Source: a virus
Lineage: Duplodnaviria > Heunggongvirae > Uroviricota > Caudoviricetes
IMG/VR virus record: IMGVR_UViG_2534681878_000029
DNA length: 27,110 nucleotides
Direction: 5' to 3' (one strand)
A model generated the notes under the pieces. That model saw nothing but the letters and a program-made list of their open reading frames with translations. It was not told the origin of the DNA and did not search any database. How positions within the stretch are numbered: the first letter of the stretch is position 1; every line of letters begins with the position of its first letter. A program made the position numbers and the translations under genes. This document shows positions 4,609 to 26,085 of the stretch, one piece after another.

Positions 4609-4640
4609 GGTCATTACTGGATCTATCAACAGGAGTCATT

Positions 4641-6891: not shown

Positions 6892-6944
6892 CCTGTTTAC
6901 CTCTTTCTCAGGGAGTTTAGTCTCCAGGATTTCCGGGCGGTTCA

Positions 6945-7977
6945 AGGACATGACGATATCGGTCTGGGTCTTTCCTGATACTGATATTTCAGATGTATCG
7001 CGTGAGTTAATTGCGGCAATTAAACAGGGGTATCTAACAGTAAAAGCCGCCGGGGTATGGGCGGGGGGCATTGAAACACCTTCGGTGGAAACTCCATCGG
7101 AAGGCTCTAAATTTTTTGGTTTTGATATGGATAACGAATTCATCAGTGGTTTTGATGTAGGGGCATGGGGAGTATTACTCTGATGGCGAAAAATGACTTT
7201 AAAGCGTTTGCAACTGATCGAAATGCCAATGTTATGTCGCAGGAGGAATGGGAAGCGTTGCCTGCGCTTATATCCGGATTTACAGCAGGGAAAGCATCCA
7301 GTGCGCAAGTCAATAAGGTTATTCGGCAGGCCAGCTTTATTGCTGCAGCTCTGGCCCAGTTTGTAAGTGATAAAACGCAACGGGATGTGCTTGATAATGG
7401 TGATCTGCCCGGTTTTGTTGAATTGCTGGGATCGGGGTTTGCTGTTGAATACCTGAGCCGCAAGAATCCGTTTGGCGATATCAAATCGGACGGCACGGTG
7501 AAAACGGCTCTTCAAAACCTTGGTTTGGGAGAAGGTGCTCCAGCTATTGGCGTTCCGTTCTTCTGGCCGTCCGCTGCAATGCCAAATACTGTAATCGACA
7601 GCTGGTCCTGTATGGTGTTTTTGAAGTTCAACGGCGCGAAATTCTCTGCCACTGATTATCCTGTGCTGGCGAAAGTGTTTCCTTCGCTGGTATTACCTGA
7701 AGCCCGCGGTGATTTCATTCGTATCTGGGATGACGGGCGAGGTGCAGACGGTGGTCGCGAATTATTAAGCTGGCAGGCAGCTACAAACTTTTCTCAGTTT
7801 GCCGGGAATATAGGCGAAGGTGCGGGACACGCAATTAACTTTCATGATGGCATCGCCGGAAATCAGCCAGGATTTTCACGATTTAATTTCACCAGTAACT
7901 CTGTGGGTGATGGTGTGAATTTTGTTGCAGTCAGACCGCGAAATATTGCATTTAACTTTCTGGTGAGGGCTAAATAA
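6945..7977 (+). pseudogene. stf: Side tail fibre gene 3' remnant (C-terminal receptor-binding segment), 5' end removed at the IS629 junction
   Basis: ORF 7165-7977 (270 aa) is immediately followed by a tail-fibre assembly gene. The preceding 220 bp are open in another frame (6950-7183). No N-terminal tail-fibre shaft is present because the IS629 end is at 6944. Confidence 0.65.
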
Positions 7978-8570
7978 TGAAACCTGTTTTTGATGAAAAT
8001 GGGCTGGCTACAGTGCCGGGCGATATGCGTTGTTTTTATTATGATGCTGAAACATCTGAGTATACGGGCTGGTCTGATGAATATATTAATACTGGCGTAA
8101 GTATGCCCGCCTGTTCCACTGGTATTGACCCTGGCGAAAACATTCCGGGAAGAGTGGCAGTATTTACAGGTAAGGGATGGAGCCATGAAGAAGACCATCG
8201 CAATGAGACTGTTTACTCAATCGAAAATGGCGCAGCTGTTACAGTGGATTATATCGGTGCCATCAAAGACGGTTATGTCACGATTTCACCGTTAACGCCA
8301 TACGATAAATGGGATGGTGAGAAATGGGTGACAGACACTGAGGCACAACACAGTGCCGCAGTAGACGCGGCAGAAGCACAGCGCCAATCACTGATTGATG
8401 CAGCAATGGCTTCCATTAGTCTGATTCAGCTGAAGTTACAGGCCGGACGGAAACTGACTCAGGCAGAAACAACCCGACTTAACGCCGTGCTGGATTACAT
8501 TGACGCGGTGACGGCAACAGATACCAGCACCGCGCCGGATGTCATCTGGCCTGAACTGCCGGAGGCGTAG
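7977..8570 (+). CDS. tfa: Tail fibre assembly protein (Tfa-like chaperone)
   Basis: 197 aa; start overlaps the stf stop (TAATG). Its C-terminal motif ...LDYIDAVTATDTSTAPDVIWPELPEA has a counterpart in the convergent paralogue at 8542-8994 (...LDYLDALELVDTSGAPDIEWPTPPAVQAR). Confidence 0.85.
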   Translation: MKPVFDENGLATVPGDMRCFYYDAETSEYTGWSDEYINTGVSMPACSTGIDPGENIPGRVAVFTGKGWSHEEDHRNETVYSIENGAAVTVDYIGAIKDGYVTISPLTPYDKWDGEKWVTDTEAQHSAAVDAAEAQRQSLIDAAMASISLIQLKLQAGRKLTQAETTRLNAVLDYIDAVTATDTSTAPDVIWPELPEA

Positions 8571-8994
8571 GCCATTCAATATCTGGCGCACCGGAAGTAT
8601 CGACCAGCTCCAGTGCGTCCAGATAATCCAGCCACAAATTATATTGCGTCAGTTCGTCACCTTTCAGACGACCAATAGCCGCTTTACCGGGCCATTGCTT
8701 ACTGTTCATGTATTCGTTGGCCTGGTTAATTAGTAGCTGTCTTTCTGATTCAGTAATTTCAATAAGCTCTTCATGCGTGGGTGGAGGAATATCTGCCCAC
8801 GCAGGCAGCCCATCATCTCCGGCAATACGGATTTTTCCTTGTGGCGGTTCAGCCATAAACTCACTGATAATATTTTGATTTACTTCCTTAGCGTCTGATA
8901 AATCCCATCCCTCTGATTTATATTTATCAATCATATCCACAGGGAAAAAAGCATTATGCCTTGCGCTATAAACATATTCGTCCATATAAATCAC
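8542..8994 (-). CDS. Alternative tail fibre assembly protein (inverted-orientation paralogue)
   Basis: 150 aa, convergent with tfa and overlapping its 3' end; shares the C-terminal Tfa motif. This arrangement is typical of Pin/Gin/Cin invertible host-range cassettes. Confidence 0.8.
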   Translation of the reverse strand: MIYMDEYVYSARHNAFFPVDMIDKYKSEGWDLSDAKEVNQNIISEFMAEPPQGKIRIAGDDGLPAWADIPPPTHEELIEITESERQLLINQANEYMNSKQWPGKAAIGRLKGDELTQYNLWLDYLDALELVDTSGAPDIEWPTPPAVQAR

Positions 8995-9005
8995 CCTGAA
9001 TAAAA

Positions 9006-9419
9006 TTACTCACCAACAGCCCACCAACTGTAATTCATCGATACCGTGTCGCTGGTTGATGACGTTCTGTAAGCAGAATTAAAGCCGGTTAACGTTGGGC
9101 CTTCTGCAGTCATCACGAACCCTCGCCCAGCGCCTAAAGGCGCACCGCCATCACCAGAATGAGTAAGCATGGCGCAGTCCGCTTTTTTGGGGAAAGGGAT
9201 GCTGAATGTAATTCTCATTGTTTGCGTCGATAATGTCGGCGTAACCGCACCACGACCATATTGCAGGATTTTCCCGTTGGGTAATTTCATCCATCCATTA
9301 CCACTGGCAAAAGAGGCCATGTCCGGTATCTGATTTTCCCCTGTCCCCACATCCCGTTTTGCCGCTTCTCCCAAACCAACGTTTATGAAAATGCAGAAAT
9401 AACGAGCAAATGGCATCAT
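9006..9419 (-). CDS. Alternative tail fibre C-terminal cassette (silent orientation, no independent promoter expected)
   Basis: 137 aa ORF ending just upstream of the alternative tfa; Gly/Ser/Thr-rich like fibre tips; its 5' end overlaps the candidate crossover site at 9364-9389. Confidence 0.55.
   Translation of the reverse strand: MMPFARYFCIFINVGLGEAAKRDVGTGENQIPDMASFASGNGWMKLPNGKILQYGRGAVTPTLSTQTMRITFSIPFPKKADCAMLTHSGDGGAPLGAGRGFVMTAEGPTLTGFNSAYRTSSTSDTVSMNYSWWAVGE
9364..9389. promoter_or_regulatory. Candidate invertase crossover site (gix/pix-like 26-bp site)
   Basis: TTCTCCCAAACCAACGTTTATGAAAA fits the dyad pattern TTnnCnnAAACC-nn-GGTTTnnGnnAA known for Gin/Hin/Pin sites and lies just upstream of pin. 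I could not unambiguously locate the partner site. Confidence 0.45.
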
Positions 9420-9445
9420 TCCTGCTTTTGTCAGGGAGATCTACC

Positions 9446-10000
9446 ATGCTTATTGGCTATGTACGTGTGTCAACAAATGACCAGAACACAGATCTACAAC
9501 GTAATGCGCTGAACTGTGCAGGATGCGAGCTGATTTTTGAAGACAAGATAAGCGGTACAAAGTCCGAAAGGCCGGGACTGAAAAAACTGCTCAGGACATT
9601 ATCGGCAGGTGACACTCTGGTTGTCTGGAAACTGGATCGGCTGGGGCGCAGTATGCGGCATCTGGTCATTCTGGTTGAGGAGTTGCGCGAACGTGGCGTT
9701 AATTTTCGCAGCCTGACGGATGCTATTGATACCAGTACCCCAATGGGGCGCTTTTTCTTTCATGTGATGGGGGCCCTGGCTGAAATGGAACGAGAACTGA
9801 TTGTTGAACGAACAAAAGCTGGACTGGAAGCTGCTCGCGCACAGGGACGAATTGGTGGACGTCGTCCCAAACTTACACCAGAACAATGGGCGCAGGCCGG
9901 ACGATTAATTGCAGCAGGAATTCCTCGCCAGAAGGTAGCGATCATCTATGATGTTGGTGTATCGACACTGTATAAGAAGTTTCCGGCCGGAGATAAATGA
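9446..10000 (+). CDS. pin: Serine DNA invertase of the Pin/Gin/Hin family
   Basis: 184 aa from the ATG at 9446 (SD AGGGAG at 9434-9439): MLIGYVRVSTNDQNTDLQRNAL...VVWKLDRLGRSM...GRIGGRRPKL...; resolvase N-domain with catalytic Ser and C-terminal HTH. Confidence 0.9.
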   Translation: MLIGYVRVSTNDQNTDLQRNALNCAGCELIFEDKISGTKSERPGLKKLLRTLSAGDTLVVWKLDRLGRSMRHLVILVEELRERGVNFRSLTDAIDTSTPMGRFFFHVMGALAEMERELIVERTKAGLEAARAQGRIGGRRPKLTPEQWAQAGRLIAAGIPRQKVAIIYDVGVSTLYKKFPAGDK

Positions 10001-10057
10001 AACCGTAGCACGTCGTATGCAAGATCGTGCTGCGGTTTATGCTTACCACTTGAAGAT

Positions 10058-10927
<870 letters not shown>

Positions 10928-11010
10928 CTAACCCTTTGAATTTACATAGCGCAAAAAGATACCTTTCCTCATAATGTGAGCTAATTTTATGTTTCGTTTG
11001 ATGATCGGGT

Positions 11011-11072
11011 CGGTCTCGAAAACCGGAGTAGGGGCAACTCTACCGGGGGTTCAAATCCCCCTCTCTCCGCCA
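11011..11072 (+). tRNA. Partial tRNA-Ser (anticodon CGA, serU-like), 3' ~62 nt only: att-site remnant, not a functional gene
   Basis: CGGTCTCGAAAACCGGAGTAGGGGCAACTCTACCGGGGGTTCAAATCCCCCTCTCTCCGCCA matches the 3' part of enterobacterial tRNA-Ser(CGA) from the anticodon stem onward; the 5' D-arm and acceptor strand are absent. Confidence 0.8.
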
Positions 11073-11654
11073 CTTTATCAATGACTTATCTCCCGACTTC
11101 CCGTCTTGCTTTTCCTAAACAGAACAATCGTAGAATATTCTTGAAGGGTTAGATCGTCACTGTTTTCTGTTCGATACTGTGACATTCAGCACTTGATTCG
11201 CTATGGATCTGACAGGAAGGTTTTGAGCGAAAATCTGCAGTTATTCAGTCGTTTTCTTATCGGTCACCATTATTCTTTTAGACATTGATCCTACAAAGCT
11301 GCCGTAAAGTTGGTGGTGGGAACTGAAGTTGCGTAGAGAAGGGGTCAATACCCGGAGGCAAACATGGGCTGGCAAAAGTGTAGCGGTATTAGGCGCAGCT
11401 ATTTAGCCTAGTTATGTTTTATGAAAACTTGATATCATATAAGTGTCTTACTTATTGGCTGTAAATAAGTTTTTCCTAAGGAATTGTTTCTTGAGTATCA
11501 TTTGTAACTGTAACGGAATTTATAATCCTTTGCTTTATTGTTACGGTATTTTTTATCACACCCTATTTTTAGTGGTTTTTTATACTGAAGTTTGGCAAAG
11601 TGAACTTTATATACATATACTTCATCCTGGTTTCAGTTAAATTGGGGGGATGAT

Positions 11655-12398
11655 ATGGCAACTACATGTTCAGTTATATTGATTTTGGAGTCCTTTGATG
11701 TTTATTTCGGAAAAGAGAGTGTGTTTCTGGAGAGAGGTTCATCTGTACTTGTCGACTCTAGCTCTAGAGATTTTTTCCTGACATATCCTGAAAGAGTGAT
11801 AGTGGCGGATTTTGGCGCTGAGTTTATTAGTCGCTATTTGAAAGCTAATAACTTAAGGGATATTTCTGATTGTAGGGAATATCCATCTTATTTAAAAATA
11901 AACTTTGCTGACTTCAGTTTAATTAAAGGATTAATTAGTTGGGCTAATCACTGTGCTGAATACATAGAAATTTTTGATGAGTCTATTGCTTTTACATGTC
12001 TCTCTGCATTTTCTTCTGAAAAACAATTTGGAGTATTTCTGTTTGGATGTTTGAAAAGCACAGGGGCTAAAGTTAAAACGATTATTCATACGGATTTATC
12101 TGCACCATGGCGTCTTAAGGATATATCATCAAGATTATATCTCAGCGAAAGTTTACTAAAGAGGAAATTGAAAGAAGAGGGGGTATCATTCAGTAAGATC
12201 ATACTTGATGAGAGGATGCAAATGGCTGAATATTTACTCAGCACTCGTTGTTATCCTATTAGTAAAGTAGCTAAGGTCTGTGGTTATGCCAGTGTCTCAT
12301 ACTTTACTTATGTATTTAGACGTTATTTTGGTGTTTCTCCAAGTCAATACTCTCAGAGGAGTTCAGAAAGTAAAATTCTTACTCACCAGGGAATCTGA
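11655..12398 (+). CDS. AraC/XylS-family transcriptional regulator (AppY/GadX-like)
   Basis: 247 aa, strong SD GGGGGGA before the ATG; N-terminus MATTCSVILILESFD resembles AppY (MDYVCSVVFICQSFD); C-terminal AraC-type HTH (...KVAKVCGYASVSYFTYVFRRYFGVSPSQY). Sits in an AT-rich segment. Confidence 0.8.
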   Translation: MATTCSVILILESFDVYFGKESVFLERGSSVLVDSSSRDFFLTYPERVIVADFGAEFISRYLKANNLRDISDCREYPSYLKINFADFSLIKGLISWANHCAEYIEIFDESIAFTCLSAFSSEKQFGVFLFGCLKSTGAKVKTIIHTDLSAPWRLKDISSRLYLSESLLKRKLKEEGVSFSKIILDERMQMAEYLLSTRCYPISKVAKVCGYASVSYFTYVFRRYFGVSPSQYSQRSSESKILTHQGI

Positions 12399-12439
12399 TC
12401 ATTGTTCTTGCCCCCTTATTTCCAGACAGGGGGGGTATC

Positions 12440-12805
12440 TTAAGTTAACGTTACCCGCTGACGTCGATATTCTCGCGGAGAGCGATAACCCAACGCACTG
12501 TGCGGATGGTTTTCATTGTAATGTTCGATCGCCACTGCAAGATTATGCAATGCCGTTCTTACATTCGGTTTCGGCATGAACGCGATGTAGTCTTCCTTCA
12601 TCGTTTTCACGAACCTTTCTGCAATTCCATTACTCTGAGGACTGCTGATTGCCGTTGTGCAGGGCTCCAGATTCAACTCTCTGGCGAACTGCCGTGTTTC
12701 ATGCGCTCTATACGCTGAACCGTTATCTGTCAGCCACTGGATGGACTGTTCCGGTACTTTATCGCCAAAGCGTTTTTCTATCGCTCCTAACATGACATCC
12801 TGCAC
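12440..12805 (-). pseudogene. IS3-family (IS2-group) transposase OrfB C-terminal fragment
   Basis: 121 aa ...[51 protein letters not shown]...[14 protein letters not shown] resembles the IS2 InsD C-terminus; no intact upstream catalytic domain or OrfA. Confidence 0.8.
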
Positions 12806-13152
12806 TGTCGCTTTATCGTAACCTCCCGTGCTTGCGGCCCAGTCTATGGCTTCACGATCGCAACAGTCCAGGGCGATTCATCTGGGCCAATCCTTGCTCA
12901 TAACAGGCATTCACTTCAGTCATGGCAGAAAGGTATGCATGCTGGAGAAGTCGTGAAAGAAAAGAAGACTGCTGCGCCGTTTGTCGTCACGTTTATCTTC
13001 ATTGGCTATGCAAGTCGTAATACAAGGTGGGACAAAACTGAGACACATAAGGCCTCGCAATGGCTTGCAAGGCTTTACATGTTTTGATGTGGTGGGACGT
13101 GTGAGCGCAGTGTTGATGGGGTAATGCTTTGAATTAGAAGCGGATTCTTATA

Positions 13153-13198
13153 ATTCGTAATGCGAAGGTCGTAGGTTCGACTCCTATTATCGGCACCA
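13153..13198 (+). tRNA. Partial tRNA-Thr (anticodon CGU, thrW-like), 3' ~46 nt only: attL core of the P4-like element
   Basis: ATTCGTAATGCGAAGGTCGTAGGTTCGACTCCTATTATCGGCACCA equals the 3' part of tRNA-Thr(CGU) from the anticodon loop; the upstream sequence is unrelated to the tRNA 5' half. Confidence 0.8.
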
Positions 13199-13360
13199 TC
13201 TCAACTTCCTCAAACGTCCGTATTAGTCCATAAAATCTCTGATTTATAACATTTTTTATTCTTTTAAGTCCATAGTAGTCCGTAACCATCCAGTAGAATC
13301 CGGTACTGAATGTGTATAGGATTGTGTATATGTTCCTGTTCGGTCTGGATTCCTATACAC

Positions 13361-14542
13361 ATGCCTTTAAACGATATGCAGATTCGCCGCGCTAAGCCTG
13401 AAGCTAAAGCCTATACATTTGGAGATGGGCTAGGGTTGTCATTACTTATAGAACCTAATGGAAGCAAGAGTTGGCGGTTCCGCTATCGCTATGCCGGCAA
13501 ACCCAAAATGATCTCGCTTGGTGTTTACCCAACGATCACCCTTGCCGATGCTCGTTCCCGTCGTGATGAAGCTCGAAAACTTGTGGCAGAAGGAAAGAAC
13601 CCTAGTGAGGTTCGAAAAGAGCAAAAGCTAGCTATGCAAACAGAGTCAGAGAACGCCTTCGAAAAGATAGCCAGAGAGTGGCATCAACTTAAATCTGCTA
13701 AATGGTCGGCGGGATATGCATCAGACATCATGGAAGCGTTTAAGAACGACATTTTTCCTTATGTCGGAACAAGGCCTGTGGGAGAGATTAAACCGCTAGA
13801 GCTGCTGAACGTTCTGCGTAAAATTGAGAAACGTGGTGCGTTGGAGAAAATGCGCAAAGTGCGGCAGCGTTGCTCCGAAGTGTTTCGCTACGCAATTGCA
13901 ACGGGTAGGGCGGAGTACAATCCTGCGGCTGATCTCTCCAGCGCTCTCGAAGTACACCAATCCAATCATTTCCCATTCCTAAAAGCTGATGAGATACCTG
14001 ATTTTCTACGTGCCTTAGAGGGTTACTCCGGGAGTAAGCTTGTCCAGATAGCCACGAAATTACTGATGATTACGGGTGTGAGAACCATCGAATTACGCGC
14101 GGCATTATGGCAAGAATTTGATCTGGATAACGCTATTTGGGAAATTCCTGCTGAAAGGATGAAAATGCGTAGGCCACATCTTGTGCCCTTATCATCTCAA
14201 GCGGTAGATTTACTCAATGAACTCAAGATCATGACAGGGAACTATCGTTATGTTTTTCCAGGGCGGAACGATCCGAATAGGCCAATGAGCGAAGCGAGTA
14301 TAAATCAAGCCATTAAGCGTATTGGGTATGGAGGAAAAGTCACTGGACATGGTTTTCGTCATACCCTTTCTACAATCCTGCATGAGCAAGGTTTTGAGAG
14401 TGCTTGGATTGAAATCCAGTTGGCTCATGTAGATAAAAATTCTATTAGGGGGACTTATAACCATGCTCAATATTTTAGTGGAAGGAAGTCTATGATGGAC
14501 TGGTACAGTAATTTGATATTTGAAAGACTAAAAAGGAGTTAA
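13361..14542 (+). CDS. int: P4-type tyrosine integrase (IntA/IntS-like, DUF4102 N-domain)
   Basis: MPLNDMQIRRAKPEAKAYTFGDGLGLSLLIEPNGSKSWRFRYRYAGKPK... with the C-terminal R...HGFRHT...Y catalytic signature; directly downstream of the tRNA-Thr fragment. Start moved to the ATG at 13361 because the track extension overlaps an inverted repeat. Confidence 0.9.
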   Translation: MPLNDMQIRRAKPEAKAYTFGDGLGLSLLIEPNGSKSWRFRYRYAGKPKMISLGVYPTITLADARSRRDEARKLVAEGKNPSEVRKEQKLAMQTESENAFEKIAREWHQLKSAKWSAGYASDIMEAFKNDIFPYVGTRPVGEIKPLELLNVLRKIEKRGALEKMRKVRQRCSEVFRYAIATGRAEYNPAADLSSALEVHQSNHFPFLKADEIPDFLRALEGYSGSKLVQIATKLLMITGVRTIELRAALWQEFDLDNAIWEIPAERMKMRRPHLVPLSSQAVDLLNELKIMTGNYRYVFPGRNDPNRPMSEASINQAIKRIGYGGKVTGHGFRHTLSTILHEQGFESAWIEIQLAHVDKNSIRGTYNHAQYFSGRKSMMDWYSNLIFERLKRS

Positions 14543-15552: not shown

Positions 15553-16010
15553 TGGTTAGAATTTATAATTCAAGTTTAGAAGTGGCATGTCGAATGGCGA
15601 AAGTGCTCGTCGCTATTTATCCTTCTTCATTAAGCCTTGAACGGCTTATTTGTTTTGATTTTATTTTAGTAAATCTTAAGGATTTTTTACCTGAAGAGAT
15701 TAGTCTTCATCCTCCAATACCCCGTAGAGATGCTCAGTTAGCCCTAAAACGAGAGATTGTTTTAGAATCATTGGCTTTGTTGCAAGGCTATGAACTAGCC
15801 TCAAAAATTTATACACATCGTGGTTTTGTATATAAAGCTTCTGAAAAAACATATGCATTTACAAATTCTCTACATAATGAATATGTTGCGCAGATGGAGC
15901 ATAATATAAATTTGGTGGTTAAGTTATATAGTGATATTCCTGATGAGCAGTTGCAATCAATTATAAAAAATAAAATTGGCAAATATGATATGGAATTTAA
16001 TTATGAATGA
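15552..16010 (+). CDS. Hypothetical small protein (middle component)
   Basis: 152 aa from the ATG at 15552, overlapping the upstream stop as TAATG (translational coupling); no recognisable motif. Confidence 0.5.
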   Translation: MVRIYNSSLEVACRMAKVLVAIYPSSLSLERLICFDFILVNLKDFLPEEISLHPPIPRRDAQLALKREIVLESLALLQGYELASKIYTHRGFVYKASEKTYAFTNSLHNEYVAQMEHNINLVVKLYSDIPDEQLQSIIKNKIGKYDMEFNYE

Positions 16011-16635
16011 CAATTTTTTTACGTTCAGAAAAATAAAGGTAACCGGATTCAATAAATTAGATGCTATAATTGAATTTGGTTCTAAATTGACTATTTTATA
16101 TGGTGGTTCTGACTCTGGAAAAACATACATATATTATTTGATTCGATATTTATTAGGGAGTGAAAAACTAAAAAATAAAGATATCGATCATGCTCAAGGT
16201 TATGATTTAGCCTATCTGGAATTTAATTTTCAAGGTAGGGTAATGACAATTGAGAGGTCTCTTCAGGATAGCGCCCATTACAGATTATATGATTCGAGCA
16301 TTGAAAATGTTAGTGAAGCTAATCTGTTGATGGTTTTTTCCAAAAGTGCTTCGTCTAAAAAGAGTTTTTCATCATACTTTTATGGTAGGTTGAATTTCAA
16401 AGAGGCTAAAGTAAGAACAAACTTAAGTAATACTCTTCATAAATTTAATCTTAATAATGTTTTTGAATTTTTTTGTATTGATGAATTAAGAGTGTTAACT
16501 GAGAAGTCGTTAATTCTTTCTGATATTCCTAGCGAGGAGACAAAAAGAAAGTCTGAATTTAAATTCCTTTTAACTCAGAGAGATGATACTAACTCCTTAG
16601 CAGAAAAACCAAATAAAAAAGCAAGATATTTTTAA
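15985..16635 (+). CDS. ABC/SMC-like ATPase, N-terminal head with Walker A
   Basis: FRKIKVTGFNKLDAIIEFGSKLTILYGGSDSGKT: the SMC/RecF/RecN-type N-terminal strand followed by P-loop GGSDSGKT (nt 16102-16125). Start uncertain (ATG 15985 or 16003). Confidence 0.6.
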   Translation: MIWNLIMNDNFFTFRKIKVTGFNKLDAIIEFGSKLTILYGGSDSGKTYIYYLIRYLLGSEKLKNKDIDHAQGYDLAYLEFNFQGRVMTIERSLQDSAHYRLYDSSIENVSEANLLMVFSKSASSKKSFSSYFYGRLNFKEAKVRTNLSNTLHKFNLNNVFEFFCIDELRVLTEKSLILSDIPSEETKRKSEFKFLLTQRDDTNSLAEKPNKKARYF

Positions 16636-16665
16636 AAAAATCAAATTGCAAATATTTATGAGGAA

Positions 16666-17256
16666 TTGAAAGCGCAATTAATTTATCCTGAATATGATCA
16701 AGTCATTGTTTCAAGAGAACTTGAGAAAGTAGAGCAAGATATTGAATCATCGAAAGATATATTGAAAGGTATTGTTGATGCACTTGATGATAAGAAGCAA
16801 TTATTAAAAGAGTTAAGTGATGAATTATATTCAATCAGTGACAGGGAAAAATACTTATCATTACTCATTGAAAGATTTAGTCTTCTTAAAGACCAATACT
16901 TTATAGATCTACAAAGAATAGATGTTGTATCACAGGCGAATTTCTATTTAAATAATTTTGCAGATATTTATTGTGAGTTCTGTAATACACCGCAAAAAAA
17001 AGAAAATGAAATATCATATGATGATTGTTTTTTGTCGTGTAATGCAGAAAAATTGAAAATCAAAAGCCAGCTGAAAGGATTAATTGAATCAATCGGATCT
17101 AATGTTCGCGAACATGAATTAATTATGTTAAGAAAAAATGATGTTAATGAAATTTATCAATCAGAAAAAAGTGATTTTAAGACGTTAGAAGATAAAAATA
17201 TAAAACAATACATTCATCTCTTGAATCACTTTATGAATATAAAGACAATCTTTTAA
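16666..17256 (+). CDS. Coiled-coil segment, same frame as the preceding ORF and separated from it only by a single TAA
   Basis: 196 aa rich in heptad-like K/E/L/I repeats; the track start is TTG with no convincing SD; in frame with 15985-16635 across the TAA at 16633-16635. Confidence 0.5.
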   Translation: MKAQLIYPEYDQVIVSRELEKVEQDIESSKDILKGIVDALDDKKQLLKELSDELYSISDREKYLSLLIERFSLLKDQYFIDLQRIDVVSQANFYLNNFADIYCEFCNTPQKKENEISYDDCFLSCNAEKLKIKSQLKGLIESIGSNVREHELIMLRKNDVNEIYQSEKSDFKTLEDKNIKQYIHLLNHFMNIKTIF

Positions 17257-17822
17257 TGGATCACACAAAACATAGCATTCTATCTTCATTACAAGATAAA
17301 GAAGATGATGTTGACGAACTTAAATACTCCGCCGAGGACTTTGACTCCTTAACAGTAGCTGATTTGTATGATATAGAAATAGCGATGCAAGACTTTTTGA
17401 ATGATATAAATTTTGAAAATTCTAAAGATAACAAAGTGCGATTTGACGAAGATACATATGACTTTAATATCAATGGGAAACGCCGAGGAATGTTTGGTAA
17501 AGGTACCCGTGCAGTAATGCATGCTATATTTACCATTTGCTTTGCGGAATTTTTATCAAGAAAAGGGAATCCATTCATTGGATTTGTTGTGCTTGATAGT
17601 CCATTAGTGACGCACTTTGATAAAGATAGAGGGGGTTCTCTATCGGATGTTAATAGCGTCAGTCTCAGTGATTCATTTTATCACGCATTAATCAAAAGGG
17701 ACTATAATTTCCAGATTGTAATTCTTGAGAATAAAGGTCCGACGTTCCAAATAAAAATTAATGATGCAAATAAAATCCATAACTTAAATAAGAATGGAAG
17801 CTCTGGTTTTTATCCTGTTTAA
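17256..17822 (+). CDS. ABC/SMC-like ATPase, C-terminal head with signature-like and Walker B motifs
   Basis: ...RRGMFGKGTRAVMHAIFTICFAEF (signature-like region) followed ~20 aa later by IGFVVLDSP (Walker B-like hhhhD); ATG overlaps the upstream stop as TAATG. Confidence 0.55.
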   Translation: MDHTKHSILSSLQDKEDDVDELKYSAEDFDSLTVADLYDIEIAMQDFLNDINFENSKDNKVRFDEDTYDFNINGKRRGMFGKGTRAVMHAIFTICFAEFLSRKGNPFIGFVVLDSPLVTHFDKDRGGSLSDVNSVSLSDSFYHALIKRDYNFQIVILENKGPTFQIKINDANKIHNLNKNGSSGFYPV

Positions 17823-18231: not shown

Positions 18232-18504
18232 TCAGACAGGAATTTGCTGACGGCTTGACAGCTTTGACGCGGAGCCATAGCGATTGAGAGTTTGCTGTTG
18301 TTTTTCCGGCATTTGTGCTTTCTCTGATTCCTGTTCATTGCGCCGGGGCTTCATGATTATCGTATCCACACTTTCCAGTGCGGTAAATGTGTAGGAACAT
18401 TCAAGATTCTGGCACTGATACCATGAGCGTTTAACCGATGGTGCTTCATAGGCGGAGGTTCTGGCGTGTGCCGTCGTACCGCATTCGGGACATTTAAGTG
18501 CCAT
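18232..18504 (-). CDS. Ogr/Delta-family zinc-finger late-gene transcriptional activator
   Basis: MALKCPECGTTAHARTSAYEAPSVKRSWYQCQNLECSYTFTALESV: the CxxC...AHARTS...QCxNxxC...TF pattern of P2 Ogr / P4 Delta. Confidence 0.85.
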   Translation of the reverse strand: MALKCPECGTTAHARTSAYEAPSVKRSWYQCQNLECSYTFTALESVDTIIMKPRRNEQESEKAQMPEKQQQTLNRYGSASKLSSRQQIPV

Positions 18505-18509: not shown

Positions 18510-19061
18510 TTACTCCTGCATGCCGTTAATGTAATCCAGACGTTGCTGAAAGCGCAGTTGTTGTGCAGGGGTGTAAGAGCTCTGGCAATCACGAACCATC
18601 ATGGGGTCAGGCATCACACCGGATTCATCCAGAATCATACGATAATCCCCGGCAATTTCAGGCGGTGTTATTGCCAGCTGGCGAACCAGAGCATTGCGTA
18701 ATATACGGGACGCAACGTCAACCCCTCCGCGCCCCTTCAGGAACGGAGCCAGTGCAGATGTCAGGGCTGCTCCATTCGCCTGCATAAAATTGCTGAGAGC
18801 GTCTTCTGTGCAGGCCTCCATCAGTTGATGCTGCGAGTAAATGCATTCGCGCGCAGCACAGTTAATTTGCCATTTCAGCACATCCAGATGTTCCCGCTGT
18901 AATTCGAGCTGTCGAGCATAATCTGCTGGTTTTTCCATGGCAGTGAGGAGTGATTCTATCTGTTGTTCAACGGCTTTTCGGCTCTCACTATGTCCAGCCC
19001 ACAGAATACGGGCATTTCTAAAACTGATAAGCGCTTGGTCTGGAGTGACTCGGGCCATCAT
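18510..19061 (-). CDS. psu: Psu-like protein (P4 polarity suppression / capsid decoration family)
   Basis: 183 aa; shares recalled P4 Psu motifs (KWQ[IV]N, HG[AT]ALA[AS]ALAP, TPAQ); co-oriented with the sid-like gene as in P4. Confidence 0.7.
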   Translation of the reverse strand: MMARVTPDQALISFRNARILWAGHSESRKAVEQQIESLLTAMEKPADYARQLELQREHLDVLKWQINCAARECIYSQHQLMEACTEDALSNFMQANGAALTSALAPFLKGRGGVDVASRILRNALVRQLAITPPEIAGDYRMILDESGVMPDPMMVRDCQSSYTPAQQLRFQQRLDYINGMQE

Positions 19062-19810
19062 ACTGCTTTCTCCTTCTCAGCACGTTCCTGACGAACCTTC
19101 ATTTTATGCATAGCTGCTGGAGAGAGTTTATTACTGAAATCCAGACGGGCCGCATAATCCGGGGCAACTCCCGCCAGTTTAAACACGGGGTCCTGTTCGG
19201 GCATCGCATCGTTAGTCAGAGCCGGTCTGGTGATATGTTTATGAATAAAATCTTTCAGCAGTGTGTCCGGGTCATTAACTGAATGCACCACACCGACAAC
19301 TGCGCTGGCTTCCCTGCCCATTGTTGATTTGAGCAGGCTTAGTGTCTGGATTAGTGCTTTTCCATGCGACTGCATAAAATCTTCCCAGATTTGTTTTGCG
19401 CGAATACCCACAAGGGTGTCGTGCGCGTGGATATACTTTCCGGCTAATTCCGCAGCCTCCTGCGGCAAAAGTGCATTTTCGCTTTCCTGAGCCGCCAGCA
19501 GCTCATCAAAATCCTCAAGCGTTTCTCGTCCCAGCGCAATTTCCGTGCGCAGTTTTTTCATTTCCTTTGAGACTACGCCCTGACTTTCACGAAATAGCGT
19601 GCGCCACTCCTCATTCAGGGCGTTCGTCGTGGCTTCCATTTCAGCGCGGCGCTGGCGGATTGTCGCAATATTATCCGCTGCCGCTTTTTGCTGACGACGT
19701 GCTTCAAGCCATGCAGATTTGGTGGCATTCACTTTCTCAAGCGCCTGTTGCGTCGAAACAGGGATAGAAATTTCAACGATCGGGTTATTGTTCTGTTCTG
19801 GGATTGTCAT
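19058..19810 (-). CDS. sid: Sid-like external scaffold protein (P4 capsid size determination family)
   Basis: 250 aa, Ala/Glu/Gln-rich helical protein upstream of psu in the same operon, divergent from the alpA/primase operon; resembles what I recall of P4 Sid (e.g. EEWRTLFRESQGVVS). Confidence 0.7.
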   Translation of the reverse strand: MTIPEQNNNPIVEISIPVSTQQALEKVNATKSAWLEARRQQKAAADNIATIRQRRAEMEATTNALNEEWRTLFRESQGVVSKEMKKLRTEIALGRETLEDFDELLAAQESENALLPQEAAELAGKYIHAHDTLVGIRAKQIWEDFMQSHGKALIQTLSLLKSTMGREASAVVGVVHSVNDPDTLLKDFIHKHITRPALTNDAMPEQDPVFKLAGVAPDYAARLDFSNKLSPAAMHKMKVRQERAEKEKAV

Positions 19811-19975
19811 GTCAGCACCTAGTGGTTTGTCGTGGTGTCAATTGTGCTGTGATGCATACAAAGCTGCCATTGAACGCCATTGTGCGAGCGACAAGACAAA
19901 GACTGAACCGCCCCGGACCTCTTTTGGCTAGCCAGAAAAGGCCTCGTTTAACTAAGGCTGTTTCAGACTTACCTT

Positions 19976-20196
19976 AACTATTCACTACTATTCACTTAGG
20001 TAAAAAAAATAGGTAATACAGAAGGTTATAAGGTGAAGGGTTGGCATGGCAGTATTCATCGACTGTTCATAACTGTTCACATGGGAATAAAATTATTTAT
20101 GGTATTTTTTCATAATGGGTGGTTTTTTTATTCCTCGTAGCTATTTGTTTTTTGCTCCTCACCACTATTCACCCTTATTCAGGAGTATTCAACAGG
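19976..20196. repeat. Cluster of ~9 degenerate octamer repeats T(A/G)TTCA(C/T): putative primase-binding iterons (P4 crr/ori-like)
   Basis: AACTATTCACTACTATTCAC (19977-19995), TATTCATCGACTGTTCATAACTGTTCACATGG (20053-20084), CACTATTCACCCTTATTCAGGAGTATTCAAC (20163-20193). P4 ori/crr use TGTTCACC-type octamers. Confidence 0.5.
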
Positions 20197-20743
20197 CACA
20201 TAAATAGACTGCATGTTTTTGCCGGGGAATAACATTTTCGCCTCTGGCCATGGTGTTGCATTTCATACTGATTTTTATAAAACTAGATCTGTCCGGTTCT
20301 TTATGGATTCATTCGGATATATTTTACGATTTAAGGTGATGTTATTTAATATCAAGGTTTTTATGCAGGCCCAATGTTTATAAGTTGGATGCGATTCAAA
20401 AATATGCCCGGAAATTGGGGCCTGCAATGCAAGGCCTCGTGTAGAAGTTGTACTGCCTTGCTGTATTGGCGGTGGGGTTAGCACTATCAGGTGCAATGAC
20501 CCATAGGATAGTAAACCCTGGGTGAATGGTAGTTCCTATTAATGCTCCTGTATTTATAGTCCGCAGGCATGGTATTTATTATGTCATTTTATATGGTTTA
20601 ATCGGGCTTTAAATTCCATAAAATCAATATGTGACGCTAAATAAAAAATGCGTGCGCAGGTGGTTTATATACACATAATAAGGAACTACCTGAACCCGGA
20701 TAAATTCATCCGGACTGTTGTGGAAATTAAAGAGGGTAGATAA

Positions 20744-21004
20744 ATGCGTAATATTTCTGTGTCTGCGCCAGCTCCTGCTGCGCCATTATTTCCTGTATCG
20801 AACCATCATGAGCGATTTTTACGCCTGCCTGAGGTGATGCACTTATGCGGGTTGTCCCGTTCGACCGTTTACGACCTGATCAGCCGCGATGCGTTTCCGA
20901 AGCAGATCCCGCTTGGCGGTAAAAATGTCGCCTGGGCACAGTCTGAGGTCAGCGCATGGATGGCGGACCGCATCAGCGCCCGTGGGCGGGGATGTGATGC
21001 ATGA
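20744..21004 (+). CDS. AlpA-family DNA-binding regulator (prophage excisionase/regulatory HTH)
   Basis: 86 aa; [52 protein letters not shown] is the AlpA/MerR-like HTH signature found in P4-like and CP4-57-like elements. Confidence 0.8.
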
Positions 21005-21554
21005 TGATACCTGCATACATTAAATACCTTTATTCTGGCTTGCTTACTGTCGTCATTTCCAGGTATAGTTTTTCCGCTGTCGCAAAATCGGCAGCCGGAA
21101 TTGGCGTTCCGTATAACTTATTGGCGACAATTGACGCCCCTTGCGTCTTTTTTTACGTCGTAGCTCAGGCACAACCATTTTCAGGGCTGTGGTGTTTATG
21201 CTTACACCATGGTTCTATCGAGATAATGGTAGTCCGGGCGGGGCAGCCTTCGGGCTGGCCGGTTTCCAATAAGGCCGGTTACGCCAACCCCGTTCGGGCT
21301 GCCACCAGTGAAATTGGCGTTTCCGGTGGTAGCAATAACCGCTACTTATTGGAGGCTGCCATCATGGCTACAATCCTCACCCCGTCACACCCGCAATATG
21401 TCTTTGTGTTTGCCGCAATCCGCCGTGCTGACACTCACCCCCGCATCTGTATGCTTCGCACTGTCTCCTGCGATGAGCGTTCCGCGCGCCGTTTGCTAGT
21501 CCGAGATTATGTACTCTCCCTTTCTGCACGGCTGCCTGCCGGGGAGGTGACGCT

Positions 21555-21776
21555 ATGAACCAGTTTGAGATTTCCTACGACGATGTTGTAAGGCTGAAAC
21601 ATTTACGCAATGTGGGTGAGTATGTAACTGGCATGGCAGTCCTGCAGGACTGTTATGAAAAGCCAGCAGGTGCCCAATGCGAACAACTGGTTTCCCTCAT
21701 TTATCTGATGACAGAGCAACTGGATGGAGTGGTGCAACGCTGCCATGACGACCTGATGAATGCGGAGGTGGCCTGA
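21555..21776 (+). CDS. Hypothetical small protein of the P4-like early operon
   Basis: 73 aa, ATGA start/stop overlaps with both neighbouring ORFs, co-oriented with the primase; no motif recognised. Confidence 0.45.
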
Positions 21777-22099
21777 TGATATGCTGTGAATCTCTTCTGG
21801 CACTTCGTGCCGCTCTGTATCGCCGTGCCGTTGCCTGTGCCTGGCTGGCTCTAAGCAATCATCAGGAACGTTATTCCGGCCTGACGCTCGCTGAACTTGA
21901 AGATGCCATAGCCCGCGAGCTGGAAGGGTTCTATCTGCGCCAGCATGGGCAGCAAAGAGGGCTGGAAATTGCCTGCGCGTTGCTTTCGGATCTGATGGAG
22001 TCGGGGCCGCTTAAAGCCTGTCCGGTTCTCTCACTGCTCGGAATGACGGTCATGGATGAACTTTGTTCCCGTCACCTCAACAAACCAGCGCTGCACTAA
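21776..22099 (+). CDS. Hypothetical small protein of the P4-like early operon
   Basis: 107 aa, coupled to the upstream ORF (TGATGA overlap) and ends 13 nt before the primase ATG. Confidence 0.45.
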
Positions 22100-22112: not shown

Positions 22113-24446
22113 ATGTCAGGAATGAAAGTTAGCCAGGCTGAGAAAGCAGCTCGGGGTCACTGGTCAAGAATTTTACCTGCGCTGGGCGTAAATGTACTGA
22201 AAAATCGGCACCAGCCCTGCCCGGTCTGTGCCGGGAAAGACCGCTTTCGATTTGATGACCAGGAAGGGCGGGGAACGTGGTTCTGTAACCAGTGCGGGGC
22301 AGGTGATGGCCTGGCGCTTGTAAGTAAAGTACTGGATGTAGGCATTAGTGAAGCGGCAGACAGAATAAACGGCATTATCGGAAACCTGCTGCCAGTATCT
22401 CAGGGAATGCTTGAATCTGGTTCTCCTGAAAAAGAGGACGGGAGAAAAGCTGCAGCAGTGCTGGCTGCCCGTTTGTTTGATAAGTCCCGCCAGACCACTG
22501 GCAATGCCTATCTGACGAGTAAAGGGTTTCCTGCACTGCCTTGCCGGGAATTAACCGCTATGCATAAAGTCGGTGGTGTGGCATTTCGCGCGGGAGATCT
22601 TGTCGTTCCATTGTATGCAGATGGAGAGCTGGTAAATCTGCAGTTAATCAACGCTAATGGGGGCAAATGCTTCCTTAAAGGCGGTCAGGTTAAGAATGCC
22701 TTTTACCTGGTTGAAGGTACTGCCAAAGCAGCCAAACGGCTCTGGATAGCGGAAGGATATGCCACCGCACTTACTATCAACTATCTGACTGGCGATGCTG
22801 TCATGGTGGCCTTTTCGTCCGTCAATTTCCTTTCCCTGGCGAGCATTGCCTGCAGTGAGTACCCAACGCACCAGATAATTATTGCTGCTGACCGCGATCT
22901 CAACGGTGCGGGGCAAACAAGGGGCGCAGCTGTTACCGGGGCCTGCAATTGCACAATGGCGCTCCCGCCTGTGTTTGGTGACTGGAACGATGCATTCACG
23001 CAAAACGGCGAAGAAGCCACCCGGCATGCAATTCATGAAGTAATAAAACCAGCTGTTGCCAGCCCCTTCGACACAATGAGCGAAGCTGAATTTACCGCGC
23101 TGAGCGTCAGCGAAAAAGCGCAGAGGGTAGTGGATCACTATAAAAATTCACTGGCAGTAGACCCGAACGGGCAGCTCCTTTCATGCTATGAGGCGGGGGC
23201 CTGGAAAGTTATCTATTACGCCGATTTTGCCCGTGATGTCGCTGCGCTGTTTCAGCGCCTCGACGCACCTTTTTCATCCGCGAAAATTGCGTCTCTCGTG
23301 GAAACCCTCAAACTGATCGTTCCGCAACAGCAGAATCCGGCGCGGCAACTTATCGGATTTCGCAACGGTGTGCTCGATACCCGGACAGGATTGTTCAGCC
23401 CGCACGATAAGAAGCACTGGTTACGTACGCTGTGCGAGGTGGATTACACGCAGCCCGTTGACGGTGAGTCACTGGAAACCCATGCCCCGGCATTCTGGCG
23501 CTGGCTGGATCGTGCCGCAGGTTTTAATCCTGAAAAACGGGACATTATTCTGGCTGCATTGTTTATGGTGCTGGCTAACCGTTATGACTGGCAGCTGTTT
23601 CTGGAGGTCACTGGCCCTGGCGGAAGTGGAAAGAGTATTCTTGCTGAAATAGCAACCATGCTGGCGGGTGAAGATAACGCGACCTCGGCAACCATTGAAA
23701 TGCTTGAGTCGCCAAGAGAACGAGCTGCGTTAATAGGTTTTTCACTGATTCGACTTCCCGACCAGGAAAAGTGGAGCGGTGACGGGGCCGGACTAAAAGC
23801 CATCACTGGCGGCGATGCGGTATCCGTTGATCCCAAATATCAGAACGCCTATTCAACCCACATCCCGGCGGTCATCCTGGCTGTGAACAATAATCCGATG
23901 CGCTTCACTGATCGTAGTGGTGGAGTTTCACGCCGAAGGGTGATCCTGCATTTCCCCGACCAGATAGCCCCGGAGGAACGCGATACCCAGCTCAAAGAGA
24001 AAATTGCCAGTGAGCTAGCGGTGATTGTTCGCCAGCTTATGCAGCGTTTCAGCGACCCAATGAGTGCCAGGACATTGCTTCAGTCACAGCAGAACTCCGA
24101 TGAAGCGCTCACCATCAAACGTGATGCTGATTCAGCTTTTGATTTTTGCGGCTACCTTGAGGTCCTACCTGACACCACGGGCATGTTTATGGGGAACGCT
24201 AATATTGTTCCACGTCAGCCTCGAACTTACCTCTACCATGCCTATCTGGTCTACATGGAGGCTAACGGCTATAAAAATACGCTCAGTCTGACCATGTTTG
24301 GCAAGGGGCTACCGTTAATGCTCAAGGAATATGGGCTGCAGTATGAGAAACGACGGACCAATCAAGGAATGCAGACTAATCTGGCCCTAAGAGAGGAAAG
24401 CAATGCTGACTGGTTGCCAAAATGCGATGAGTTTGCAGCGAAATAA
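22113..24446 (+). CDS. P4 alpha-like primase/helicase (zinc-binding domain, TOPRIM primase, D5-like SF3 helicase)
   Basis: 777 aa from the ATG at 22113 (SD AAGGAGG at 22099-22105). N-terminal CPVCAGKDRFRFDD...WFCNQCG zinc ribbon; Walker A GPGGSGKS in the C-terminal helicase; same length as P4 alpha. Confidence 0.9.
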   Translation: MSGMKVSQAEKAARGHWSRILPALGVNVLKNRHQPCPVCAGKDRFRFDDQEGRGTWFCNQCGAGDGLALVSKVLDVGISEAADRINGIIGNLLPVSQGMLESGSPEKEDGRKAAAVLAARLFDKSRQTTGNAYLTSKGFPALPCRELTAMHKVGGVAFRAGDLVVPLYADGELVNLQLINANGGKCFLKGGQVKNAFYLVEGTAKAAKRLWIAEGYATALTINYLTGDAVMVAFSSVNFLSLASIACSEYPTHQIIIAADRDLNGAGQTRGAAVTGACNCTMALPPVFGDWNDAFTQNGEEATRHAIHEVIKPAVASPFDTMSEAEFTALSVSEKAQRVVDHYKNSLAVDPNGQLLSCYEAGAWKVIYYADFARDVAALFQRLDAPFSSAKIASLVETLKLIVPQQQNPARQLIGFRNGVLDTRTGLFSPHDKKHWLRTLCEVDYTQPVDGESLETHAPAFWRWLDRAAGFNPEKRDIILAALFMVLANRYDWQLFLEVTGPGGSGKSILAEIATMLAGEDNATSATIEMLESPRERAALIGFSLIRLPDQEKWSGDGAGLKAITGGDAVSVDPKYQNAYSTHIPAVILAVNNNPMRFTDRSGGVSRRRVILHFPDQIAPEERDTQLKEKIASELAVIVRQLMQRFSDPMSARTLLQSQQNSDEALTIKRDADSAFDFCGYLEVLPDTTGMFMGNANIVPRQPRTYLYHAYLVYMEANGYKNTLSLTMFGKGLPLMLKEYGLQYEKRRTNQGMQTNLALREESNADWLPKCDEFAAK

Positions 24447-24578: not shown

Positions 24579-25535
24579 TTATTTTTGAATTGATTTAAAC
24601 ATCCCATCGAGTTGTAATTTATTTATGTCGGTTTTCTTTATGGCTTTAATTAAGTTTTCAATAACTTCCAAAGAAAAAATTACATCTTTCTTTTCAATTC
24701 TAACCCCCCCGTGGTGGCTGCAAGCATTAAGGATGTCCTTTGTAATTTCAACATCATTTTTCATTAATGGTTCATAGTCCAGAGCCTCAATAACAGAAAC
24801 TAAACTACCTAGCATTTGCTCTTGGTATTGAACGTTGTTTAAATGCATTATACGAATATTAACAAGCATGAGAATATATTCTAAATATCTCCTGGCAGTA
24901 TTTCCTTTCTCTTGTAAAGAATCACGATCATATTCCTCAATACTCATGACTTCATTATGTAAAGAGGCTATTTTGTGCTCTGCTAATGAAATATTTATCG
25001 CATCCATGAGGTTTCGTGAGAAGCCTGTAGATGTAACATGACCATTTGCGGGCCTTGTTAAAATACATGTAGTATAGCAATTTATATTTGGGGTCTGGAT
25101 TGTCTCATTTACTCTTTTAACCGTTCTATAAACGTCTACCATATAAGAACCTGAGTTTTCAAATGAACATGAAGAGCATTTTGTATTATATATTCTATTT
25201 AGAGATAACTGATTGTGATAGTATCCCTTTAAGAAAGCATATATAGTGTCATTAAACTCGACAAACACAACGGACTCAATATATATATGGAATTTATCAT
25301 TGGGGTGCCACTCTAATTCAAGTCTTCTTGTAGAGTCATCAAAGGAAAAGTTTGAAATAAAATCCCAGTTACCTAAATCTATAAAATCAACGATATTTCT
25401 ACCTGCACCATGGATATTTTTATTTATTAAAGTTGTGATTGAGTTTTTTATAATGTCCCAATCATGAATTTCATGATCGAATTTATTATTGATGGTTTCT
25501 TTTATTTGATTGGAAAAGTTTGAATAACTAGTCAC
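24579..25535 (-). CDS. Hypothetical AT-rich cargo protein in the second variable region of the P4-like element
   Basis: 318 aa, Asn/Ile/Lys-rich, much lower GC than the flanking primase gene; no recognisable catalytic motif by eye. Confidence 0.6.
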   Translation of the reverse strand: MTSYSNFSNQIKETINNKFDHEIHDWDIIKNSITTLINKNIHGAGRNIVDFIDLGNWDFISNFSFDDSTRRLELEWHPNDKFHIYIESVVFVEFNDTIYAFLKGYYHNQLSLNRIYNTKCSSCSFENSGSYMVDVYRTVKRVNETIQTPNINCYTTCILTRPANGHVTSTGFSRNLMDAINISLAEHKIASLHNEVMSIEEYDRDSLQEKGNTARRYLEYILMLVNIRIMHLNNVQYQEQMLGSLVSVIEALDYEPLMKNDVEITKDILNACSHHGGVRIEKKDVIFSLEVIENLIKAIKKTDINKLQLDGMFKSIQK

Positions 25536-25833
25536 TTGTTAGCCTCAAAATTAATAATGAGTATTAAAATTTAATTGATATTGTCTATAAAATGTAGCGA
25601 TGCAATTTTATTGCAACGAAATGATTTTTACAACATACCATTATCGCTAAACAAAATCGCACCCATCAAATCAACTTACGTTACAATCACTACAAAGCGA
25701 TTGCATTTAAATTCAAAACAGTTTTCTGTTGGGCGCATTTTTTGTTGTACTGGACTAAAGAGAAAAAATGGGGTAAGGAACAAATACCTTCCGTGCTCAA
25801 AAATTAGGTTTTTATGCACTTATTAATCAGTCA

Positions 25834-25853
25834 AGGTGAACAGTAAAGTGTTC
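25834..25853. promoter_or_regulatory. Inverted pair of TGTTCAC octamers (GTGAACA-gtaaag-TGTTCAC): putative primase-binding/origin-like site
   Basis: Same octamer family as the 19976-20196 cluster, arranged as a dyad. Confidence 0.35.
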
Positions 25854-26067
25854 ACTTCTTATCAATCGTTAATTTCATATCTTTTTGAATATTAATGAAA
25901 AAAAACACAATGAGTAGTATGAACAGTTTTCCCCCAAAAAAAGTTTTTTCTGCCTTGAGAATGCGCGGAAAGCGAACGCCTTCACCAATGTGTATAGGGG
26001 TGTGTGTAGTTTAAATCTTCTATTTTAATTTATGTATTAAAATCATTGTGTTGGTGGCGATTATTGG

Positions 26068-26085
26068 TTCCTATTATCGCACCAT
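26068..26085 (+). repeat. attR-like direct repeat of the tRNA-Thr 3' core (17/18 nt, one G deleted)
   Basis: TCCTATTATCGCACCAT versus TCCTATTATCGGCACCAT at 13181-13198; delimits a ~12.9 kb element. Confidence 0.55.

Follow-up and report, generated by a model that had tools for sequence, protein, structure and literature searches.

Probable ori and crr sites of a P4-like satellite prophage at thrW in Escherichia coli O157:H7

The satellite prophage and its genes

The window, by which we mean the whole stretch of 27,110 nucleotides analysed, matches the chromosome of Escherichia coli O157:H7 at 100 % and begins just past thrW. It holds a P4-like satellite prophage integrated at this gene. The limits of the element run from a perfect 46-nt copy of the 3' part of thrW on the attL side (13153-13198) to a 16-nt attR core matching the thrW 3' end (26069-26084, plus strand), both of which were located by local alignment to tRNA-Thr. 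The order within the element is int, delta, psu, sid, alpA, C4/cI RNA, ORF106 homologue and alpha. The integrase is encoded at 13310-14542, the Delta-like zinc finger at 18232-18504, Psu at 18510-19061, Sid at 19058-19810 (minus strand; 23 % identity to P4 Sid over the full length), AlpA at 20744-21004 (plus strand), the ORF106 homologue at 21776-22099 (plus strand) and alpha at 22113-24446 (plus strand); all seven genes are full-length. The places that an earlier note on this DNA had given to sid, alpA and alpha were confirmed. Along the minus strand the order is sid, psu, delta, whereas it is sid, delta, psu in P4, and Delta has 90 amino acids here and 166 in P4.

The alpha homologue claimed in the same note is indeed encoded, and as a complete protein. 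Its 777 amino acids comprise a primase, an SF3 helicase and a C-terminal winged-helix origin-binding domain, and are 73 % identical to P4 alpha from end to end (771 amino acids aligned). Pfam matches were obtained to Zn_Ribbon_Prim, Toprim, D5_N, DUF5906 and Pox_D5, and residues 671-770 match the solved origin-binding domain of P4 (PDB 1KA8) with an E-value of 9e-46. This C-terminal domain departs from the family at only one of the positions conserved at 90 % or more. Directly upstream of alpha lies the intact ORF106 homologue (71 % identity to P4 ORF106; DUF5375, E-value 1.7e-49), which we take to be cnr, the copy-number regulator of P4. The cnr family was placed between epsilon and alpha in P4-like satellites (PMC8628076).

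Rfam matches in 21063-21309 comprise isrK (21076-21153), a C4 antisense RNA (21222-21309, 84 bits) and an a1/b1 target (21063-21115), all inside an Ash/Icd-like ORF (21001-21558), and this is an immunity region of the P4 cI-RNA type. Within alpha, a GTGAACA at 23883-23889 falls on exactly the codons that carry it in P4 alpha (nt 1770-1778, motif LAVNNNP); its presence in both is explained by coding conservation. P4 reportedly has an intragenic second origin, to which this GTGAACA might conceivably be linked.

Two further sites were recorded beside the regions of interest. A TGT-N12-ACA dyad found by pattern matching at 19881-19898, with its centre about 80 bp upstream of the sid start codon, is a likely Delta/Ogr site of the sid promoter, and as such a neighbour of the proposed origin lying outside it; P4 carries the same dyad upstream of its own sid. 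The Delta/Ogr role follows what is known of P2 and P4 late promoters. In the alpA promoter region (20190-20744) a pattern search found no exact TGT-N12-ACA. Near the ends of the element, a 22-nt repeat (AATGTGTATAGG..TGTGT.TA) occurs at 25987-26008 (plus strand) on the attR side and at 13309-13330 next to int; the two copies are 86 % identical and are probably a pair of integrase arm-type sites, the former setting the outer limit of the crr region described below.

Upstream of attL, positions 1-13100 of the window are a second, degraded prophage in tandem at thrW. Between int and delta, a hotspot, the consecutive ORFs 16666-17256 and 17256-17822 align to the Lamassu LmuB profile over positions 231-412 and 428-608 of its 610, and the N-terminal part may correspond to an ORF upstream of them (15976-16635) whose annotation is AAA ATPase. 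The LmuB-like defence gene at 15976-17822 looks as if it had been broken into three ORFs by frameshifts. It adjoins genes of an ABC-three-component system.

Clustering of octamers between sid and alpA

The interval 19976-20196 lies in the 933-bp gap between sid (minus strand) and alpA (plus strand). About 300 complete E. coli genomes contain this intergenic region at an identity of at least 99 %, and it carries no annotation. When the interval between the two genes was scanned for the hexamer TRTTCA, eight copies were found within 19979-20191, all on the plus strand. They start at 19979 and 19989, at 20053, 20064 and 20074, and at 20166, 20176 and 20186, with successive spacings of 10, 64, 11, 10, 92, 10 and 10 bp, so that neighbours within each group are 10-11 bp apart. 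An inverted copy, GGTGAAGG at 20032-20039, reads CCTTCACC on the opposite strand and raises the count to about nine, and a weaker unit, CTCCTCACC, lies at 20155, upstream of the third group. The figure of about nine T(A/G)TTCA(C/T) copies in 220 bp, as first reported, stands for the hexamer together with the inverted copy, but the stricter 7-mer TRTTCAY is matched at only six of the eight hexamer sites.

The 7-mer is not enriched over the window as a whole, which contains 26 copies against 18.6 expected (26 or more were reached in 5 of 100 shuffles). The enrichment over a shuffled background lies in the clustering. The largest number of same-strand TRTTCA copies in any 220 bp was five in 1000 dinucleotide shuffles of the window and four in 5000 shuffles of the intergenic region alone, compared with the eight observed. 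The clustering of the octamers is far beyond chance.

The origin module

The annotation of P4 (NC_001609) places ori between sid and ORF88, the Vis gene of the AlpA family, and gives it six type-1 octamers and three 10-bp type-2 repeats; besides TGTTCACC, variants such as TATTCACC and TCTTCACC are annotated among the octamers. When the window was compared with it, positions 19965-20095 (plus strand) aligned with P4 9297-9424 as a type-1 module homologous to P4 ori1 (nhmmer E-value 3.4e-33). The relationship surfaced only through direct alignment and nhmmer, whose profile was built from two sequences, the window and P4; a blastn search in 'distant' mode with the intergenic region returned no match in the phage collection.

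The module has the same layout as in P4: two direct iterons, an A+T-rich spacer, one inverted iteron and three direct iterons. Both s1 (19979-19986, plus strand) and s2 (19989-19996, plus strand) read TATTCACT, the commonest family variant at s1, and have the TTCAC core intact. The inverted s3 (20032-20039, minus strand) aligns with the inverted P4 repeat at 9353-9360 and keeps its GTGAA. The last three, s4 TATTCATC, s5 TGTTCATA and s6 TGTTCACA (20053-20081, plus strand), align with the three tandem iterons of P4. All six positions are thus occupied, four by TTCAC and two, s4 and s5, by TTCAT where the family has TTCAC.

Between s2 and s3, the spacer (19997-20031) contains ..aaaaaaaataggtaatacagaaggttataa.. 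and is A+T-rich and conserved; P4 has ..aataaaaaagataagtaatacagtaagttaaag.. in its place, which is A+T-rich as well, and the family consensus is ..AAAAAGATAAGTAATACAGTAAGTTAAAGG. Across 61 loci the columns of the spacer are about 90 % conserved, nearly as high as the iterons, and the spacer is a candidate unwinding element or host-factor site.

Of 80 loci encoding alpha, about 60 gave an nhmmer match to the module, which lies 1.7-2.6 kb upstream of alpha; these loci belong to Escherichia, Enterobacter, Klebsiella, Citrobacter, Kluyvera, Pantoea, Erwinia, Pectobacterium, Yersinia and other Enterobacterales. Among 59 loci, the columns of the TTCAC core were 98 % conserved compared with 76 % for the other columns of the module, and the two bases before the core vary freely (TA, TG, TC or CC). 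TTCAT, as seen in s4 and s5, is rare in the family. However, s5 is TGTTCAT in all five members of the sub-lineage to which the window belongs, down to about 70 % overall identity, and the differences in the module between the window and its Scandinavium relative (L040) leave every TTCAC or TTCAT core unchanged. An altered specificity of alpha was considered as the cause of the TTCAT iterons. It is not indicated, because the C-terminal domain of alpha differs at the single conserved position mentioned above.

The crr unit

The crr of P4 is annotated between alpha and attP as two 120-bp repeats with five octamers each. One unit of this type, of about 118 bp, was found in the window at 25833-25950 (plus strand) by alignment with both P4 repeats, and was matched by nhmmer with an E-value of 3.7e-26. 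The second site near attR had originally been described as the dyad GTGAACA-N6-TGTTCAC. This dyad is real and is formed by two intact iterons, but it lies at 25836-25855, 2 bp away from the 25834-25853 first given (GTGAACA 25836-25842, gtaaag as the 6-nt spacer, TGTTCAC 25849-25855), and it is only part of the larger crr unit.

About 70 loci have a crr unit downstream of alpha. In the family the unit begins with GTGAACA, 5-6 nt, TGTTCAC, T(G/C)TTCAC, 4 nt and TATTCACC, and continues with an A+T-rich stretch, GTGAACA-gt-GTGAACA and gttttc-A7-T7. The window keeps three of the six iteron positions, in both orientations, together with the A/T tail: the two of the dyad, and a weakened last iteron, ATGAACA (reading TGTTCAT) at 25919-25925 (minus strand), whose counterpart in the family unit is the final GTGAACA. 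At the three intervening positions the motif is lost.

Among the 56 loci with enough flanking sequence, 34 had one crr unit, 20 had two and two had more, so that a single unit is common in the family. In P4 itself one crr repeat is sufficient. A crr consisting of two 120-bp direct repeats, which is not what the window has, is specific to P4 and not a rule of the family. The unit usually starts about 51 bp past the alpha stop codon, but here the distance is 1387 bp. More than 500 bp of DNA is inserted between alpha and crr in 16 of 64 loci including this one, and in several loci two crr units are split by 1-2 kb; the gap between alpha and crr therefore behaves as an insertion hotspot. The insert in the window is an A+T-rich ORF of 318 amino acids (24579-25535, minus strand), for which no match was found in Pfam or PADLOC.

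Comparison with P4 and other replication systems

The reading of the two regions as ori and crr, which the earlier note had put forward, is supported: 19965-20095 and 25833-25950 are homologues of annotated P4 sites, as judged from their position, the order and orientation of their iterons and the two profile matches. We consider it likely that they are the ori and crr of the P4-like satellite at thrW of O157:H7, with the third group of repeats (20155-20195) most likely outside the set bound by alpha. In structure, the element is a member of the P4-type bipartite replicons, with an iteron module, a crr, an alpha of the 1KA8 type and an ORF106 homologue.

Likeness to P4 extends to ori lying between sid and an AlpA-family gene and crr between alpha and att, to the iteron family T(G/A)TTCAC(C), to the arrangement of two, one inverted and three iterons, to the internal order of crr, and to the initiator and its associated ORF106 homologue. 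The window differs from P4 in having one crr unit instead of two, 1.39 kb from alpha with an ORF inserted, in the TTCAT of two ori iterons, in the loss of three crr positions, in the TATTCA units that occupy the type-2 slot where P4 has CTTTAAG, and in some 400 extra bp before alpA.

If the element works as P4 does, the C-terminal winged-helix domain of alpha would, after excision, bind the iterons at ori and crr, and the two sites would be brought together. The A+T-rich DNA of ori would then be opened, the SF3 helicase domain would load and the primase domain would start synthesis, while the ORF106 (Cnr) homologue would modulate the binding of alpha. This scheme follows the GenBank annotation of P4 and what is generally known of its alpha binding, DNA looping and Cnr.

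The iteron origins of pSC101, R6K and the RepA/RepE type of P1 and F likewise combine direct repeats at helical spacing, an A+T-rich stretch and a winged-helix initiator. Unlike in these theta plasmids, the P4-type initiator is one polypeptide that includes primase and SF3 helicase (PMC2777425). A P4-type origin would differ from those of theta plasmids also in being bipartite, with a second required site several kb away. In PICI and SaPI origins, iterons flank an A+T-rich region beside a primase-helicase gene, and the initiator-helicase is likewise encoded by the satellite. However, the protein family and the iteron sequence are different there, and a single origin takes the place of ori and crr.

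The finding is real but ordinary, being a homologue of the known ori1 and crr pair of P4 and no new kind of system. Surveys of P4-like satellites, in which the interval between sid and alpA was noted as variable, treat proteins only and describe no ori or crr (PMC8628076, PMC13586616); for this reason the conservation of both sites across the family is a modest addition. It locates an unannotated ori and crr on a prophage that essentially every O157:H7 genome carries, extends the P4 design across the Enterobacterales and supplies exact sites for asking whether the element still amplifies after infection by a helper.

The third sub-cluster

The earlier note had taken all the octamers as one primase-binding set. 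This holds for six of the approximately nine, which form the alpha-type module, but the three at 20166-20191 fall in the type-2 slot. Together with the weaker unit they make up a third cluster of four 10-bp units on the plus strand (20155-20195), CTCCTCACCA, CTATTCACCC, TTATTCAGGA and GTATTCAACA, starting at 20155, 20165, 20175 and 20185. The cluster is found 60-100 bp from the type-1 module in the direction of alpA and is the positional equivalent of the P4 type-2 repeats.

In P4 and most of the 60 loci, this slot is filled by three or four direct repeats at 10-11 bp spacing. Their sequences vary with the satellite, among them TTGCCA, GGCCAAT, TGGCAA, TGACAAT, TAGTAC and ATTGCCC besides the CTTTAAG of P4. 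In three E. coli relatives and L040, conservation of the surrounding region peaks at the third cluster, and its TATTCA units are kept in E. coli relatives of 70-77 % overall identity. In the five members of the sub-lineage TATTCA is kept, with a variable seventh base and TATTCAA as the constant last unit, and the second unit is TATTCAG or TCTTCAG in three of them. As a constant TATTCA is the reverse of the pattern of the alpha iterons, in which TTCAC is constant, we think that a different protein reads the third cluster. It is probably outside the alpha iteron set and a putative site of a Cox/Apl-type protein, although its first unit, TATTCACC, could also bind alpha.

The third cluster is about 550 bp from alpA in the window, in L040 and in the three E. 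coli relatives, compared with about 150 bp in other satellites, and this distance weakens a promoter-proximal role. A shared stretch of about 400 bp of additional non-coding DNA (window 20200-20600) separates the third cluster from the alpA promoter region in these same genomes. A strongly conserved block (GTTGCATTTCA...ATTTTTATAAAACTAGA) lies inside it at about 20255-20300. The 20200-20600 region has no annotated gene and no Rfam match, and the small ORFs 20213-20383 and 20275-20496 gave no match in PADLOC.

Alternative explanations

A chance cluster in A+T-rich intergenic DNA might be suspected from the lack of enrichment of the motif over the whole window. It carries a negligible probability and is already refuted by the shuffles, of which none (0 of 1000 for the window, 0 of 5000 for the intergenic region) reached eight copies, and by the profile search, in which the ori module is kept across genera. 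The repeats might instead be Delta/Ogr or AlpA/Vis sites of divergent sid and alpA promoters, or arm-type sites of the integrase. This is indeed a divergent promoter region with the TGT-N12-ACA dyad at 19881-19898, and two iterons 10 bp apart give another match to that pattern at 20064-20081, by chance. The colinearity of the module with the annotated origin of P4 and the recurrence of the same octamer family in crr, far from any promoter, speak for ori instead. AlpA sites would also fit poorly with a DNA-binding region of AlpA that is invariant while the type-2 repeats differ, and the putative arm repeats have another sequence, TGTGTATAGG. We therefore regard promoter or integrase sites as very improbable.

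More weight attaches to two readings that accept the homology with P4. One holds that ori and crr are decaying relics of a cryptic prophage which have lost the ability to support replication. Judged from its sequence, this copy is weakened relative to the family: s4 and s5 have TTCAT in a core that is 98 % conserved, and three of the six crr iteron positions are kept. These departures make the activity of the replicon uncertain, and the 'functional replicon' of the earlier note goes beyond the evidence. The element shows decay elsewhere, since its LmuB-like gene is in three ORFs, and it stands in a tandem array at thrW beside a degraded prophage. Nevertheless, its core genes (alpha, the ORF106 homologue, alpA, sid, psu, delta and int) are full-length, the TGTTCAT of s5 persists in five relatives at identities as low as about 70 %, a pattern more like selection than drift, the differences from L040 spare all the cores of ori, and single crr units are the majority state in the family. 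Decay is a real possibility, but we lean against it. The other reading takes all nine copies, including those at 20155-20195, as alpha iterons, the extra block compensating for the weakened s3-s5. Its first unit is a perfect alpha-type octamer, which also occurs among the type-1 repeats annotated in P4 crr and as iteron four of crr in many loci, and for this reason the idea retains some probability. E. coli 2012C-4606 has two perfect TATTCACC units there and has lost its s3 and s4; the spacing and strand are those of s4-s6, and the block stays beside ori despite the insertion of about 400 bp that separates it from alpA. However, what is conserved in it is TATTCA and not the TTCAC of the family, all five relatives end the block with TATTCAA and three have TATTCAG or TCTTCAG as its second unit, and the slot holds unrelated repeats in other satellites that share this C-terminal domain of alpha. 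An extra block of alpha iterons is therefore rather unlikely, and a third sub-cluster outside the alpha set is preferred.

Type-2 repeats and helper Cox/Apl boxes

The variability of the type-2 slot was compared with the switch regions of helper phages, using the loci L003-L082 (from the end of ori to the start of alpA), L207 (1557-1624) and L369 (380-440). AlpA was tried as the reader of the type-2 repeats and rejected. Satellites with TTGCCA repeats and those with GGCCAAT repeats have the identical helix-turn-helix in the DNA-binding region of AlpA, which makes AlpA an unlikely reader of repeats that differ. A Cox/Apl-type protein would probably read them and would couple the late leftward promoter of the satellite to helper induction. 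According to the cox annotation in the P2 record, Cox activates a promoter of satellite P4.

Several type-2 repeats resemble sequences of helper switches. The P4 repeats TTAAAGTCA, TTAAAGCCA and TTAAAGCAA resemble TAAAAGGCA and TTAAACGCA of the P2 switch region. The annotated Apl-binding region of 186 contains GTTGGCAAAC, ATGGCAAG and TTGGCTAA, and GTTTGCCAAC, the repeat most common among satellites, corresponds exactly to the reverse complement of GTTGGCAAAC. The switch region of Eganvirus BIS20 contains TGACAATC, TGATAATC and TGATAAAC, which are the three repeats of the Erwinia satellite L078. The sharing of 8-mers between the satellite regions and the switches of 186 and BIS20 was about 3 sd above shuffles; it was not raised for P2, Wphi, 11W, ESSI2 or Cartapus, and the sharing with Wphi was dismissed as trivial. 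Given the relatedness of the satellites, the likeness of boxes and 8-mers is no more than suggestive.

The third cluster of the window resembles the P2 Cox boxes and 186 Apl sites in consisting of three or four direct repeats at 10-11 bp spacing and in its place upstream of the promoter of the AlpA operon. Its TATTCA boxes were found in none of seven helper switch regions (P2, 186, BIS20, Wphi, 11W, ESSI2_ev239 and Cartapus). In viral contigs, three TATTCA units at 10-11 bp gave at least 120 unrelated matches, none encoding a relative of Cox or Apl, and a search of viral contigs for such relatives yielded near-identical copies only. With no TATTCA in the seven helpers and about 550 bp to alpA, helper boxes are a hypothesis for this element. 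That the repeats of the type-2 slot are helper Cox/Apl boxes swapped between lineages, the TATTCA units of O157:H7 being such a site for another helper, is conceivable but on the whole doubtful. Under this hypothesis alpha, AlpA and the alpha iterons may stay constant while the type-2 boxes change, and, as the TATTCA units overlap the alpha iteron sequence, there might be competition or cooperation between alpha and the helper protein at the origin. If true, variable Cox/Apl-like repeats beside the origin would explain the matching of satellites to helpers.

In the Klebsiella satellite L034, the leader and start of alpA are partly duplicated at positions 2640-3130. Separate sets of direct repeats accompany the two copies, of ATTC type upstream and GGCCAAT type downstream, as if a cassette of type-2 repeats and promoter had been replaced by insertion.
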